DNA from: an uncultured Clostridium sp.
GTDB taxonomy: Bacteria; Bacillota; Clostridia; TANB77; CAG-508
Assembly (NCBI GenBank): GCA_945946655.1
Contig: CAMEWM010000003.1
Location: 28,109-92,108 of the forward strand
Reading direction: 5' to 3'
Length of the DNA stretch: 64,000 nucleotides
Part shown: positions 6,957-61,157 of the stretch, piece by piece
Position numbering within the stretch: the stretch's first letter is position 1
How the letters are laid out: each line of letters begins with the position of its first letter
The notes under the pieces: model-generated
What the model was told of the DNA's origin: nothing
The model's input: the letters and a program-made list of their open reading frames with translations, nothing else
Database searches by the model: none
Translations under genes and position numbers: made by a program

Positions 6957-8372
6957 TTATTTTTCCTTTTTTACTATTATTCCATCTTTAGTATCTTTTA
7001 TGCTATAGCCTTTACTTATTATTAAATCTCTCAATTCATCAGATTTTGACCAATTCTTATCTTCTCTGGCTTTTTTTCTTTCTTCTATAAGTTTTTGTAT
7101 CTCTTCTGGTAGATCTTCATTATTTTCTTCTTTATTAAATTCTGCTAAATATCTTTCTGCATTTTTAATATCTAGTCCTAATACTTTATCAAATTCTAAT
7201 AATAGTTCGGCAAATTTAATTGATTTTTTAGAGTTTCGTGCAATATCCCATACAACGCTCATAGCTCCTGGCATATTCATGTCATCATTTATGTATGATA
7301 TAAATTTTTCTTTATATTCTTCTAATACTGAATCATCTATATCTTCTTTTCCATTTAAATTCTTTACATAGCTGTCGTACAATCTTTCTAATGCTTTTTG
7401 TGCTCCAAGAGCTCCATCAAATGTAAAATTTAATTTATTCCTATAATGAGCTGTAAAGCAGAACAATTTATATGCAAGTGGAGATATTCCTTTTTCTTTT
7501 AGTTGTGATATGGTATAAGTGTTTCCTAAACTCTTTGACATCTTGCCTCCATCTACTAGTAAATATTCACAATGCATCCAAGTCCTCGCTGGCATTTTTC
7601 CAGTTGCTCCCTTAGCTTGAGCAATTTCATTTTCATGGTGAGTTGGAATATGATCTACTCCACCTGTATGAATGTCAAATTCTTCTCCTAAAAATCTTCT
7701 TCCCATAGTAGAACATTCTAGATGCCATCCTGGATATGATAATCCCCAAGGGCTTTCCCACTTCATTATATGATTTTCTGGAGCTTTAATCCAAAGAGCA
7801 AAATCATATGGATTTCTTTTTTCAGGATCCACATCCACTCTAGCACCTGCCATTTGTTCGTCTAAATTTCTATTTGACAATACTGGATATTTATCTAATT
7901 TTGATATATCAAAGTAAATTCCTTTGCTTGTTTCATATGCATATCCATTTTTTAGAATTTCTTGAACATATTCTATCATTTGTGGAATATTTTCTGTTGC
8001 TTTTGTAATTATTTCAGGTTTATCAATATTTAACTTTTCCATATCTTTAAAAAATATTTCTGTATAGAACTCTGCAATCTCGTATGGATCTTTATTCTCC
8101 TTTCGAGCAGCTTTTTCCATTTTGTCTTCACCTTCATCAGCATCAGACTCCAAATGTCCTACATCAGTTATGTTCATAACATGCTTTAACTCATATCCAT
8201 TATATTTCAAAACTCTTCTTAATGTATCCATAAATATATATGTTCTAAAATTTCCTATATGAGCATAGCTGTAGACCGTAGGTCCACAACTATACATTCT
8301 CACTTTGTTATTATCTATAGGTTTAAATTCTTCTTTTTTTCTTGTAAGCGTATTATAAAATGTTAATTTCAT
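6957..8372 (-). CDS. cysS: Cysteine--tRNA ligase
   Basis: Class I aaRS motifs HIGN (HIGH-like) and KMSKS present. Likely true start is the internal Met (MKLTFYNTLTRKKEEF) at 8372, preceded by AAGGAG; the track ORF extends to 8411. Confidence 0.95.
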   Translation of the reverse strand: MKLTFYNTLTRKKEEFKPIDNNKVRMYSCGPTVYSYAHIGNFRTYIFMDTLRRVLKYNGYELKHVMNITDVGHLESDADEGEDKMEKAARKENKDPYEIAEFYTEIFFKDMEKLNIDKPEIITKATENIPQMIEYVQEILKNGYAYETSKGIYFDISKLDKYPVLSNRNLDEQMAGARVDVDPEKRNPYDFALWIKAPENHIMKWESPWGLSYPGWHLECSTMGRRFLGEEFDIHTGGVDHIPTHHENEIAQAKGATGKMPARTWMHCEYLLVDGGKMSKSLGNTYTISQLKEKGISPLAYKLFCFTAHYRNKLNFTFDGALGAQKALERLYDSYVKNLNGKEDIDDSVLEEYKEKFISYINDDMNMPGAMSVVWDIARNSKKSIKFAELLLEFDKVLGLDIKNAERYLAEFNKEENNEDLPEEIQKLIEERKKAREDKNWSKSDELRDLIISKGYSIKDTKDGIIVKKEK

Positions 8373-27362: not shown

Positions 27363-28295
27363 TTATCTATTATTTATCCATTCATATACATAATCATAGA
27401 CTTCATATCTTCTATTTCCTTCATGTAGTATGTCGTGTCTTAATTCTTTATATAATCTAATATCTATACTTTCCATTCCTGCTTTTTTAAAATCATTATA
27501 AGCTCTTATTACTCCTTTGCCACATTCCCCTACTGGATCTTTATCTCCTGATAGAAATAAAACAGGCATCTTCTTATTCATTTTCTCAATGTTTTTTATT
27601 TTTCCTGTAAAAGACATCCCTGATAGCATCTCTCTGAAAAGTCCTGCTGAAAGATTATCTCCACGTCTTTTGTCTGCGATGTATTCATCTAGGCTTTTAT
27701 TATCTGAGCATAGCCAATCAAAATCTGTTCTATTGGGAGCAAATACTTTATTATATGTCTCAAATGTTAGTTTCCTTATCATTGGACTTGAATGATCTTC
27801 TCCAACTTTTTTTGCTTCATTTTTAACAGCAAATTTTGCAATTGCAATCTGTAGTGCAGGAATTTCTCCTGTCCCGACTAATATTGCTGCATCCACATTA
27901 TTGGGATATTTTATTAGATATGTTCTTGCTAAAAAAGAGCCTAATGAAAAACCTAATAATATATATGGAATTCCTTGCAATTTTTCTTTTATTTTAGTCC
28001 TACATGTATTCAAATCCTCTACTGCCCAATTCCAACTGCCAACTGGTCCAAAATACATTGGTTGCGCACCTTCTGCTATAGATAAGCCATGCCCTAAGTG
28101 ATCATTTCCCACCACAGCAATGCCTCTGTCTGTCAAATATTTAGCAAAGTCTTCATACCTTAAAATGTATTCCGTCACTCCATGGGCAATCTGCAAAACA
28201 GCCTTTGTTTCCCCATCTGGTAGCCATTCTACTGCATGTATTTTTGTCTTTCCATCTGCCGACATATAATAAAATTCATTCTTTCTCATTTTCAT
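27363..28295 (-). CDS. Alpha/beta hydrolase (lysophospholipase / monoacylglycerol lipase-like)
   Basis: 310 aa. Nucleophile elbow GFSLGS (GxSxG). HG oxyanion-hole motif. Confidence 0.85.
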   Translation of the reverse strand: MKMRKNEFYYMSADGKTKIHAVEWLPDGETKAVLQIAHGVTEYILRYEDFAKYLTDRGIAVVGNDHLGHGLSIAEGAQPMYFGPVGSWNWAVEDLNTCRTKIKEKLQGIPYILLGFSLGSFLARTYLIKYPNNVDAAILVGTGEIPALQIAIAKFAVKNEAKKVGEDHSSPMIRKLTFETYNKVFAPNRTDFDWLCSDNKSLDEYIADKRRGDNLSAGLFREMLSGMSFTGKIKNIEKMNKKMPVLFLSGDKDPVGECGKGVIRAYNDFKKAGMESIDIRLYKELRHDILHEGNRRYEVYDYVYEWINNR

Positions 28296-45362: not shown

Positions 45363-45437
<75 letters not shown>

Positions 45438-46519: not shown

Positions 46520-47185
46520 TTAATTGCTTGTGGTCTCGTCACTTTCATAATGGTGCACATACCATTCTGGATGAGTAGTCCTCTTGTAACCAGCTTCAAT
46601 CAGAGAGTTGACAGTATCGTTGACAACCGTTTTCACCTTGATCAAAAAGGTCCTGCCATACTCGTCGCAGACCATAAGGGTCTTATCATCGACAACGATA
46701 TACGTGCCAATATTTTTTCCAGTATCGTGGAGCAAGTACTTCGTCACCATTGCCGTGTAGTAGGTATTGGTAGCAGTATCATTATAACCTTCACTAATCT
46801 GCTTAACCTGCTTAATCTGCGCCAGATTCAGTTGAGCCTCTTTGATTCCTTCAGACTTAGCGATTTCGGCCGCTTTTTCGTAGGTTTCTGCCCAATTTTC
46901 CTCGTTAGCAATCTTCGCCAACCAGATATAGGCTTCAGGTTTTGTCTCTTCATTAGAAAACGGAACATAGAGACAACCGTACTTGTACCCGGCACTCTTC
47001 AGGATATCTTCGATTTCGCTACGATACGGAGTCACCATAACGTTACCACTGCCATCTGAGAAAGCAATTTGACCATTGTTCTGGCAGTAGAACTTACCTT
47101 CACAATGTTCGATCACTTGGTAGGAGAACTGCATTAGTTCCTCCAAATCTGCGATCCGGACGTGACGAATAGGTTTGTTGAACAT
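46520..47185 (-). CDS. Hypothetical protein (about 221 aa) on a GC-rich island with atypical codon usage
   Basis: Roughly 42-45% GC against about 27% for the surrounding window. Uses CTG/GCC/CGC-type codons rare in the host. Start assigned to the Met at 47185, preceded by AGAGG; the track ORF extends to 47209. No recognisable domain. Confidence 0.6.
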   Translation of the reverse strand: MFNKPIRHVRIADLEELMQFSYQVIEHCEGKFYCQNNGQIAFSDGSGNVMVTPYRSEIEDILKSAGYKYGCLYVPFSNEETKPEAYIWLAKIANEENWAETYEKAAEIAKSEGIKEAQLNLAQIKQVKQISEGYNDTATNTYYTAMVTKYLLHDTGKNIGTYIVVDDKTLMVCDEYGRTFLIKVKTVVNDTVNSLIEAGYKRTTHPEWYVHHYESDETTSN

Positions 47186-47276
47186 ATGTATACCTCTTTC
47201 TGCCCACAATTCGTGGGACTTTGTAATATGTCGTGCTCTTGAGGAGTCACGCTAACCCTTTTGGGTTATTCCTCAT

Positions 47277-59164: not shown

Positions 59165-59171
59165 GTATATA

Positions 59172-59245
59172 TGGAGCAGATGAGGGGAATCGAACCCCCA
59201 CTGTCGCCTTGGGAAGGCAATGTTCTACCACTAAACTACATCTGC
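59172..59245 (-). tRNA. tRNA-Gly (anticodon CCC)
   Basis: Reverse complement gives gcagatg...catctgc acceptor, anticodon stem ttgcc/ggcga, loop ttCCCaa, T-arm ggggg-ttcgatt-cccct, CCA encoded. Confidence 0.85.
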
Positions 59246-59587
59246 ATAATCATATTTTACCACTTATTTATATTTTTTCAAGTAGTTAAGATTATTAATT
59301 TATGTTTTTACTATAAAGATAAAAAATAATCTAGAAGACCTACAATTGTCCTGTGGTCTTCTAATATATTAGTCAGAATATATTATTTAAGATGTATTGA
59401 ATCCTGTCAATTATTTTCTTAAATATAGATTCTTCTTTATATTCTACAATTTCCAAAGTTATCAAATTCTTTATCATACATATAACATTTATATCATTAT
59501 CTTTATTATATTTATATCATAAGTTAATATTTTGTACAATAAAAATTCAACCTATGTTACTATCCACCCACGACACAAGGAGGTTAC

Positions 59588-59968
59588 ATGGCAATCTTTG
59601 AAGCCGAGGGCTATTGCCCTCAGACCGCAATCTGGCGGTGGAACATCGACCATAGTGGCAATGTTGCCACTGACTACGAGGAGGTGTATAGCCTGCTACG
59701 TAGCACCATGGGTTACATGGTGTACCCTGACCCGGAGAGAACTCTTCAGTACGCACCTGAGCTGTTCTGTGGCGCCCACGCTAACAGCAGTTCTCTTGGG
59801 CGCACCCTTGCGTCTAAGTTGAAGCAGCTTCATCCTACCAGGATTGAGCTCTATGACTGCAAAGACTACTCCGATCTCCTCCAAGGAGAAACGCTACTGT
59901 CTGATGAACGCTTCACTGTCGTTCTCAGCACTGTTGGCGGGGTTCAGGTTTACATCTTCAAGCAGTAA
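59588..59968 (+). CDS. Hypothetical protein (126 aa) encoded on a short high-GC island
   Basis: AGGAGG RBS 7 nt before ATG at 59588. Roughly 50-55% GC against about 27% for the host. Followed by a GC-rich terminator. No recognisable domain. Confidence 0.6.
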   Translation: MAIFEAEGYCPQTAIWRWNIDHSGNVATDYEEVYSLLRSTMGYMVYPDPERTLQYAPELFCGAHANSSSLGRTLASKLKQLHPTRIELYDCKDYSDLLQGETLLSDERFTVVLSTVGGVQVYIFKQ

Positions 59969-59982
59969 CCAGGACCGATGGA

Positions 59983-60017
59983 GGGGGCACTTATAACAGT
60001 GCCCCCTTTGCTTTTTT
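59983..60017 (+). terminator. GC-rich rho-independent terminator of the 126-aa gene
   Basis: gggggcact-tataac-agtgccccc followed by tttgctttttt. Confidence 0.75.
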
Positions 60018-60053
60018 ATTTACTATTTTTTAGCTATTGTATTAATTAAACAT

Positions 60054-60078
60054 AAAAAAACTCTACAATATTGTAGAG
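60054..60078 (-). terminator. Rho-independent terminator after tRNA-Gly(TCC) (minus strand)
   Basis: ctctacaat-attgtagag hairpin followed on the minus strand by T7. Confidence 0.55.
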
Positions 60079-60087
60079 TTTATATTT

Positions 60088-60161
<74 letters not shown>

Positions 60162-60275
60162 ATATTTCCTAACGACAAATATTATTATAATGGTAATTAT
60201 TCAATTTGTCAATAGGATTTTTAAATTTTTTTAATTTTTTTACACATTTATCATTTATTGTATTAATATTATATT

Positions 60276-61157
60276 TTATGCTCTTGGGTGAGCTTTTTTA
60301 TATTCATTTTTTATTCCTGGATCTTGAAATTGCATATATACTTGTGTAGAAGATATATCTGAATGTCCAAGCATTGTCTGAATAGCTTTTAGATCAGCTC
60401 CATTTTGCAATAAATGCGTTGCAAAAGAATGTCTTAATACATGTGGGGTTATTTCTTTTTCTATATGAGCTTGTTCTTTATAATATTTAACAATCTTCCA
60501 GAATCCTTGTCTTGTTAATCTTGTTCCATTAACATTAACAAATAGAGCCTCTTCATTTTCATCTCTTATTAAATATGGTCTTGCATCCTCTATGTACTCT
60601 TTTAATGCTTTTAAAGACATTGAACCTAAAGGAATATTTCTTGCCTTATTTCTTCCTCTACATACAACATATCCTTCATCCATTTTAACATCATCTATAT
60701 CTAATGAGATCATTTCCGTAACTCTCATTCCTGTAGCATATGCGAATTCTAGCATTGCTTTATCTCTAGTGCCCTTTAAATCAACATCTTTAGGTTGTTC
60801 CAATAATAACTCAACTTCTTTTGAAGTTAATATATTAGGTACTCTTTTATTTATTTTAGGTGATTCAATAGTCATAGTTGGATCTTTCTTTATCTTCTTT
60901 ACTCTTATTAAATATTGATAAAAAGATCTTATTGAAGCTAGACTTCTTGAAATAGTAGATTCCTTTTTATTTTCTTCTCTTAAATATTCCATATATTCTA
61001 GTATAGTTTCTTCGGTTACTTTTAAATAGTTAATTTTGTTATCTGATACGTATTTTTCATATTGCTCTATATCTCTTCTGTATGATTGAAGTGTGTTATC
61101 TGATAATTTCTTGTCATCTTTAAGAAAATCTAAAAAAAGTTTAACTTGCTTTTCCAT
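60276..61157 (-). CDS. xerD: Tyrosine recombinase XerD/XerC family (chromosome dimer resolution)
   Basis: 293 aa. R..H.R.Y catalytic tetrad context (HVLRHSFATHLL, ...TQVY). Adjacent to spoIIM, as in the Bacillus ripX region. Confidence 0.85.
   Translation of the reverse strand: MEKQVKLFLDFLKDDKKLSDNTLQSYRRDIEQYEKYVSDNKINYLKVTEETILEYMEYLREENKKESTISRSLASIRSFYQYLIRVKKIKKDPTMTIESPKINKRVPNILTSKEVELLLEQPKDVDLKGTRDKAMLEFAYATGMRVTEMISLDIDDVKMDEGYVVCRGRNKARNIPLGSMSLKALKEYIEDARPYLIRDENEEALFVNVNGTRLTRQGFWKIVKYYKEQAHIEKEITPHVLRHSFATHLLQNGADLKAIQTMLGHSDISSTQVYMQFQDPGIKNEYKKAHPRA

Follow-up and report, generated by a model that had tools for sequence, protein, structure and literature searches.

Where an AT-rich genome has a GC-rich island, it is usually an RNA gene. 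In the present study we analysed such an island in a stretch of 64,000 nucleotides (nt), called the window throughout, which covers positions 28,109 to 92,108 of contig CAMEWM010000003.1 (GenBank assembly GCA_945946655.1) and comes from an uncultured member of the gut Clostridia close to 'Clostridium sp. CAG:245', whose relatives include CAG:508 and Ca. Merdicola. The island lies between two tRNA-Gly genes and carries a single gene for a protein of 126 amino acids (aa). It is probably a natural gene fixed in its species, which belongs to an unannotated family, occupies a hypervariable tRNA site and has a GC content tied to the folding of its mRNA, with mRNA protection and a role in conflict as its putative functions. 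Coordinates are those of the window, except where they follow the handle (L) of a locus from another assembly.

The locus recalls several described systems, and departs from each of them. Like the cargo genes of tRNA-linked islets and hotspots, the gene lies next to tRNA-Gly(tcc), on its 3' side, and the contents of its interval vary among close relatives; family members elsewhere abut genes for tRNA-Gly, tRNA-Leu or transfer-messenger RNA (tmRNA), and the 3' end of the adjacent tRNA-Gly(ccc) serves a serine-recombinase element as its insertion point. Unlike such islets, the cassette in the window has neither an integrase nor convincing attachment-site (att) repeats, consists of a single gene and is fixed in its species, and the turnover at its site resembles allele replacement between conserved flanks rather than insertion and excision. 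With the orphan immunity genes of polymorphic toxin systems, and with anti-CRISPR (Acr) loci that include a helix-turn-helix (HTH) gene (Aca), the family shares a small, soluble, orphan protein, a sporadic distribution, extreme allelic divergence at a fixed locus and tandem paralogues; moreover, an XRE-type HTH gene of 65 aa belongs to the cassette of relatives, one of which has an AcrIII-1/Csx16-like gene next door. It differs from these in that the window holds no toxin, defence or mobile-element partner, in that the HTH gene of the relatives is convergent and absent from the window, and in that the family has no match in PADLOC or PHROGs and no structural similarity to a known immunity or Acr protein.

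Highly structured mRNAs with a longer functional half-life are known among engineered and eukaryotic mRNAs and, in bacteria, among the stable mRNAs of type I toxins. In the window gene too the coding body is far more paired than its synonymous alternatives while the ribosome-binding site is open, but here the predicted trait belongs to a natural bacterial gene family, and to unrelated accessory neighbours, with a GC content 10-25 points above that of the host. Finally, the island looks like the non-coding RNAs of Firmicutes (ROOL, GOLLD, OLE, raiA, tmRNA, RNase P RNA) in being a GC-rich segment of about 450 nt with a strong folding z-score, placed next to tRNAs in an AT-rich genome; unlike them it has no covariance-model match or conserved architecture, and its constraint at the protein level is clear.

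A protein-coding gene of a constrained family

The GC content rises abruptly at the island, as a sequence-only reading of the window had pointed out. In windows of 200 nt it reaches 0.51-0.56 across 59600-59999, against 0.21-0.24 upstream and about 0.3 downstream (flank range 0.15-0.35); the segment 59560-60010 has a GC content of 0.53 against 0.294 for the whole window, and is the top GC island of the 64 kb. It is a single-gene cassette, made up of a promoter-like site, a Shine-Dalgarno (SD) sequence, an open reading frame (ORF) of 126 codons and a terminator:

59511-59540, plus strand: candidate sigma-70-type promoter of the 126-aa gene (TTTATA, 18-nt spacer, TACAAT), putative and a consensus match only (9/12)
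59578-59583, plus strand: Shine-Dalgarno sequence AGGAGG, read from the sequence, 4 nt before the ATG
59588-59968, plus strand: coding sequence (CDS) of the 126-aa protein including the stop codon, from the ORF call; N-terminus MAIFEAEGYCPQ; GC 0.52, GC at third codon positions (GC3) 0.61
59979-60020, plus strand: intrinsic terminator of the 126-aa gene, with a stem of 13 bp (7 G-C pairs) within 59979-60010, a loop of 6 nt and then a T-tract

Thus, both the AGGAGG ribosome-binding site and the GC-rich terminator reported from the sequence are in place, and the sole polymorphism of this terminator within the species falls in the loop, at position 59998. The codon usage had been described as unlike that of every other gene in the window. 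This stands for the seven host genes of like size, with a GC3 of 0.15-0.20 against 0.61, but does not extend to every gene, as the ORF at 46520-47209 (minus strand) reaches a GC3 of 0.50. That second GC-raised orphan (229 aa, GC 0.43, without a Pfam match) lies about 1.1 kb from another tRNA-Gly(tcc) gene at 45363-45437, and may be a further case of the same phenomenon. The 126-aa ORF shows a codon periodicity with G1 0.31, A2 0.33 and A3 0.10.

A structured non-coding RNA gene with an incidental ORF was first suspected, because a GC island beside tRNAs in an AT-rich genome suggests one. The folding of the whole island (sense-strand z of -5.8), the tRNA genes on both flanks and the poor AlphaFold model obtained from the single sequence would fit such a gene, and an open frame of this length arises by chance in only 1.5-3% of dinucleotide shuffles of the island, which leaves some room for an accident. 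The comparison with relatives tells otherwise. Among 1.84 billion representatives, scanned exhaustively with HMMER, three distant homologues (P0013-15, E 3e-5 to 5e-4) aligned from residue 1. The alignment connects the window ORF with these three, and also with the ORFs that share its site and orientation in two related loci, L011 and L012. The relatives are detectable at the protein level, with indels in frame, and not at the DNA level; dN/dS is 0.11-0.29 in six informative pairs of the family, and a strong SD and the start codon are conserved in 10 of the 10 family genes inspected, all of which have an initiation region that is open relative to the gene body. With the family alignment the AlphaFold model of the window protein improved from a pLDDT of 34, which is unusable, to 78.6 with a pTM of 0.75. 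No Rfam match was found inside 59560-59975 at the gathering score or at E up to 10, weak matches being limited to the terminator region (the best, frnS, with 33 bits against a threshold of 60). A consensus RNA fold over the codon alignment of 20 members retains one hairpin of 4-6 bp at -3 kcal/mol, against a mean minimum free energy (MFE) of -128 kcal/mol for the single sequences. On account of the distant homologues, the shared motifs, the dN/dS values, the conserved SD and start codon, the alignment-based fold and the lack of a common RNA structure, the island is a translated-looking protein-coding gene under constraint, and an RNA gene is very improbable.

The family is defined by the motifs MAxYE..G.CP, GYMVY, SLG..A..L, DERFxV and VxxYxxK. 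Profile searches gathered about 46 clusters, none of them named or with a Pfam domain, and the family as a whole numbers about 50; a third large protein search with a broader family profile brought no new or annotated relatives. The window protein matches family profiles that include it at 1.7e-36 and 1.3e-20; by BLASTP its matches to the same-site ORFs of L011 and L012 are not significant, and intermediate sequences and profiles were needed for the link. By sequence match, motifs and a compatible fold it belongs to this unannotated 'MAMYE-GYCP' family, which was found only in uncultured, mostly low-GC Clostridia of the gut and rumen. The product is a small cytoplasmic alpha/beta protein; in the predicted fold five helices are packed against a sheet of five strands with a three-strand meander at its end. 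No other member of the family is as short or as divergent as the window copy. The long variable loop that it lacks is also absent from L108 and L112, so that such short forms are natural.

The sequence-only reading had recognised nothing in the protein, and this agrees with the searches. For the window protein and 36 family members Pfam, PHROGs, PADLOC and NCBIfam returned nothing but sub-threshold noise; a sequence-profile search of the PDB found nothing significant for the family, nor did Foldseek against BFVD, and the best Foldseek match in the PDB had an E of 0.13. Searches of phage and plasmid DNA gave no meaningful match. In one contig of 1.5 kb (L130, 810-1412, P0049) the N-terminal 85 aa of a NUDIX hydrolase run in frame into the C-terminal portion of a family protein of the L011 type; this fusion was dropped as uninformative, being present in a single contig and probably a deletion or an assembly chimera.

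Fixation in the species and turnover between species

A search of 5.8 billion proteins with the 126-aa protein returned a single cluster of 12 near-identical variants, the three commonest of which occur on 57, 30 and 18 contigs (NCBI, ENA, Logan), and more than 100 independent contigs from metagenomes have this same sequence in the same place. The gene order (DUF6882 gene, tRNA, ORF, tRNA, xerD, spoIIM) is constant in ten independent assemblies, and contigs picked solely by their exact XerD protein carry the gene in all eight cases that reach far enough. Its nucleotide diversity is 0.0031 (two synonymous sites and one non-synonymous) against 0.0043 for spoIIM. Thus, the gene appears to be fixed and vertically inherited within its species, and a recent strain-specific insertion is not supported.

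The abrupt jump in composition and the tidy architecture, with a consensus SD and a strong terminator, could have come from an assembly chimera, contamination or an engineered insert, as the sequence-only reading had considered. The probability of any of these is practically nil, because the identical gene recurs at the identical site in many independent assemblies; the island junctions are the same across different assemblers and studies, in contigs of up to 286 kb, and homologues occupy the same site in other species.

The position between tRNA-Gly(CCC) and tRNA-Gly(TCC) was confirmed by ARAGORN and Rfam. The flanks of the island contain:

59172-59245, minus strand: tRNA-Gly(ccc), found by ARAGORN and by Rfam (68.1 bits)
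59254-59281, minus strand: promoter-like site of tRNA-Gly(ccc) (TTGAAA, 16-nt spacer, TAAAAT, with TG before it), in a region conserved in L011, L012, L014 and L094
60058-60081, minus strand: terminator hairpin of tRNA-Gly(tcc), which marks where the variable cassette ends on the right; the empty L014 site has an equivalent hairpin
60088-60161, minus strand: tRNA-Gly(tcc), found by ARAGORN and Rfam, its 3' end towards the island and its own perfect promoter at 60184-60212 (minus strand)
60276-61157, minus strand: xerD-like gene for a tyrosine recombinase with Pfam Phage_integrase and SAM domains, adjoining spoIIM and outside the island

The xerD-like gene, which served as the synteny anchor for comparing loci, had been taken for a chromosomal gene. 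This is supported by its conservation next to spoIIM in all 80 of the loci fetched from related species. The 842-nt interval between the tRNA-Gly genes holds the 126-aa ORF alone and no integrase or recombinase gene, as had been noted. The search for att repeats found a repeat of 13 nt, AT-rich and with a single mismatch (59522-59534 and 60077-60089), which is no better than the chance repeats of the region.

The proposal that this is a tRNA-Gly integration hotspot gains support from what the window and related loci hold between their two tRNA-Gly genes:

L014, 314 nt: empty
window, 842 nt: family gene only
L051, 1000 nt: unrelated ORF of 242 aa
L012, 1505 nt: family gene and Cys-rich gene
L011, 1645 nt: family gene, convergent HTH_26 gene and Cys-rich gene

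The comparison with relatives that the sequence-only reading had called for thus finds the interval empty in one species and differently filled in others. No DNA match to the island was found in the 80 species loci, and a family gene lies near xerD in the two nearest species only. Although XerD is 95-100% identical among the window, L011, L012, L091 and L094, the family alleles at this site share 17-32% identity, the exceptions being L011-L094 (89%) and L012-L091 (51%). Elsewhere, L097 and L109 differ by a dS of 0.054 in mutS2 and by a dS of 0.62 and a dN of 0.13 in the adjacent family gene. The two family genes are mosaic: their promoter, 5' untranslated region and first 38 nt are nearly identical, and from there on divergent blocks alternate with conserved ones. 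Relative to L097, L109 has a further intergenic insertion of about 400 nt, and L118 (640-1081) carries a gene 99% identical to that of L109 in which a frameshift produces two ORFs, either a pseudogene or a sequencing error.

In L002 and L122, which belong to the window's species, and in L094-L096, the 3' end of tRNA-Gly(ccc), at about window position 59170, is the exact insertion point of a large serine-recombinase (Resolvase and Recombinase domains)/TnpV element that also carries a gene of 90-92 aa. The element replaces the flank on the DUF6882 side seen in the window, so that the synteny between the window and L002 breaks at 59170. From this insertion point it follows that the 126-aa gene is not part of the element.

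The inter-tRNA interval is therefore supported as a true variable hotspot between species, in which alleles of the same site have been replaced, or have diverged, far faster than the flanking chromosome, and the gene as a self-contained, orphan-like cargo gene of that hotspot. It is best read as an accessory cassette, stable within the species, with alleles that are either swapped by recombination between conserved flanks or unusually fast-diverging.

A convergent gene for a 65-aa XRE-type HTH protein (HTH_26), a gene for a basic Cys-rich protein of 104-110 aa, or both accompany the family gene in the sister species; neither is present in the window, and the Cys-rich gene itself has an elevated GC content (0.40-0.42). 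These HTH_26 and Cys-rich companion genes are located at:

L011: 5292-5624 and 5829-6026
L012: 5457-5771
L091: 4527-4724
L094: 4609-4806 and 5011-5343

The other family genes stand alone among housekeeping genes, for instance mutS2, ftsY, rplC, pnp/rpsO and trxB. MutS2 is supported by Pfam; the remaining neighbours we take to be ftsY, rplC, pnp/rpsO and trxB from the N-terminal sequences of their ORFs, without Pfam support. Of about 17 contexts, 9 place the family gene next to a tRNA or tmRNA gene. In L099 it lies downstream of a tmRNA gene in the same orientation (1557-1913 and 2081-2533), and in L104 (315-388 and 558-1160) and L106 (22-95 and 240-695) downstream of tRNA-Gly(tcc), likewise in the same orientation; the gap is within 145-170 nt in all three, which again places family genes at classic integration sites. 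L100 carries tandem paralogues, 227-712 (161 aa) and 735-1178 (147 aa), 23 nt apart and upstream of ABC-transporter genes.

GC content and mRNA folding in the family

The GC content of the island is a property of the family. Its mean over 24 members is 0.45; in the 18 hosts with flanks below 36% GC the family gene exceeds its flanks by 0.10 to 0.25, whereas in the six hosts of 41-46% GC the excess is about zero. Homologues do exist at the same site in sister species, a finding that with host-like composition would have told against the island as a foreign insertion, but their GC content is raised in low-GC hosts. Since a high GC content is common to the family in every low-GC host, it gives no clock for acquisition.

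To this composition corresponds a very strong signal of mRNA structure in the coding region, which the sequence-only reading had missed. Folding was expressed as a z-score of the native MFE against synonymous-codon permutations, in which protein, codon usage and composition are held constant, and for this reason composition cannot explain the excess. By this measure the window CDS gains about 30 kcal/mol in stability over its permutations (z -5.0 to -5.6; -5.4 against dinucleotide shuffles). Nine other family genes give z values of -1.8 to -4.9 against synonymous permutations, and 19 further ones a mean of -2.6 with extremes of -6.8 and -7.3, while seven ordinary host genes used as controls range from -1.8 to +1.6 and average about zero. 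The family mean is about -3 to -4, and in the low-GC hosts the excess corresponds to z values of about -2 to -9. In 15 of 16 genes the stabilisation is greater for the sense strand than for the antisense strand (means of -22 and -15 kcal/mol), which points to the RNA and not to the DNA. The window gene, with its z-score, its sense bias and controls near zero, thus has the marks of a selected mRNA secondary structure, and in the family as a whole the high GC content is tied to synonymous-site selection for base-pairing of the sense mRNA, with the ribosome-binding region left open.

A simple and recent horizontal transfer from a donor with a GC content of about 50%, in which the GC content would be an unameliorated relic and the folding a functionless by-product, would account for the GC3 of 0.61 in a host of 0.15-0.20. 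It would also agree with the hotspot character of the site, with the family members in hosts of 41-46% GC, and with the window allele being nearer to genes in other contexts (30-37% identity) than to the sister alleles at the same site (17-24%). It is difficult to reconcile with a gene that is fixed in its species with a diversity like that of its neighbours, and with the retention of 10 to 25 additional GC points by all 18 members in low-GC hosts, including lineages that are separated by a dS of 0.3-0.6 at a conserved locus in a host with a GC3 of 0.08. Neither the persistence of the folding excess against permutations that preserve composition, codons and protein nor the sense bias is expected of a by-product. 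We consider this explanation rather unlikely, and the description of the gene as recently acquired is not supported, given its apparent fixation, its neighbour-like diversity, the same-site homologues in sister species and the family-wide GC content.

The only RNA element common to the family is the following hairpin:

59606-59621, plus strand: hairpin GAGGGC-UAUU-GCCCUC, codons 7-12 (E-G-Y-C-P-Q)

The part conserved in position is GGGC-UAUU-GCCC, which the G-Y-C-P codons form. Its flanking pairs are compensatory, GA..UC in the window and UU..AA in L097, and the choice of codons in the G-Y-C-P motif favours pairing: of the members that have the motif, about two thirds use GGC and nearly all use TGC. 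This conserved hairpin, together with a strong and sense-specific excess of structure, could indicate a dual-function RNA, which would encode the protein and also act through its hairpins as a regulatory or decoy RNA. The family has no other structure in common, no repeated loop motif was seen in it, and no partner or target was identified; a dual function is accordingly a decidedly unlikely explanation. Two known kinds of RNA were ruled out by eye, namely a CsrB-like sponge, as the hairpin loops (UAUU, AAUCUG, AUGU) have no GGA motif, and a VirR-regulated RNA of the VR-RNA type, as there are no VirR boxes upstream.

Unrelated small genes at the same hotspot in relatives are also GC-rich and over-folded. 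In L012 a gene at 7124-7528 (plus strand), immediately past tRNA-Gly(ccc) and in the position taken in the window by the DUF6882 gene, encodes a protein of 135 aa with a Cys-rich C-terminal tail that matches STIV_B116/DUF1874 and the PADLOC model for Csx16; its GC content is 0.55 in a locus of 0.33, and its folding z is -7.9. DUF1874 is the AcrIII-1 ring-nuclease family (bioRxiv 10.1101/778746). In L071 tandem paralogues of 86 and 88 aa (7111-7368 and 7549-7812, plus strand), unrelated to the family, have GC contents of 0.48-0.50 in a locus of 0.29 and z values of -3.3 and -4.2; the first has no Pfam match.

Possible function and significance

For the probable reading, that of a natural and fixed gene of an unannotated family with a GC content tied to mRNA folding, we propose the following mechanism. 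The GC-rich, over-folded body of the transcript would resist single-strand-specific, AU-preferring RNA decay, or an RNA-targeting attack, in the AT-rich host, and such a resistant transcript would give a long functional half-life to the product of a single stand-alone gene. The protein may be an accessory factor under lineage-specific selection, most plausibly acting in conflict with mobile elements or competitors in an immunity-like or anti-defence-like manner. We infer this role from the hotspot location, the turnover of alleles, the tandem paralogues and the preference for sites adjacent to tRNA and tmRNA genes. The gene does not look like a type II toxin-antitoxin system, since it is single in the window, has no Pfam or PADLOC match and, in relatives, is accompanied by an HTH_26 gene that is convergent and not co-directional; nor does the family match a catalogued defence or Acr protein in PADLOC, PHROGs or BFVD.

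Several observations weigh against this reading. Family, defence and structure libraries are silent on the function of the protein, and the rationale of mRNA stability or evasion is one that we only infer. The family genes of L108, L115 and L116 show no excess folding (z 0 to +0.4). In a subgroup of four sequences (three effective sequences) covariation is weak, with five double-sided changes against about 17 broken pairs of 118, and third codon positions are not less variable in stems than in loops (0.38 and 0.30). Part of the GC excess could be a relic of transfer if alleles were repeatedly imported from donors of intermediate GC content. Furthermore, the window copy alone lacks nine residues (the C.YA..GR segment) and has LRST in place of the near-invariant LGDR, and it could be, at least in part, a decaying copy; the polymorphism within its species is too sparse to show constraint.

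A bolder extension of the proposal is that AT-rich gut Clostridia carry a class of small conflict genes with GC-rich, nearly fully paired mRNAs, a 'structural armour' that would include this family, the AcrIII-1/Csx16-like neighbour and other orphans of the hotspot. Their transcripts would persist in the cell or escape RNA-guided or single-strand-specific attack, for instance by type III CRISPR systems, RNase toxins or RNase Y/J decay, and the 126-aa protein would act in immunity or anti-defence as a new factor whose locus undergoes rapid allele replacement. We regard this extension as speculative and more probably wrong than right by a wide measure.

A GC island in an AT-rich genome is normally taken for an RNA gene or for a fresh transfer, and the present case, which is probably neither, calls for caution in genome scans. 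What is new, at a locus of a known type, is an unannotated protein family without sequence or structural relatives outside it and with a family-wide signature of mRNA structure and GC content, together with a hypervariable tRNA-Gly locus in a clade of Clostridia that is uncultured but abundant in the guts of humans and animals. If over-folded, GC-rich mRNA were general among accessory or conflict genes, it would provide a simple compositional handle with which to find them, and it would also offer a testable case of bacterial synonymous-site selection for the structure of a whole transcript.

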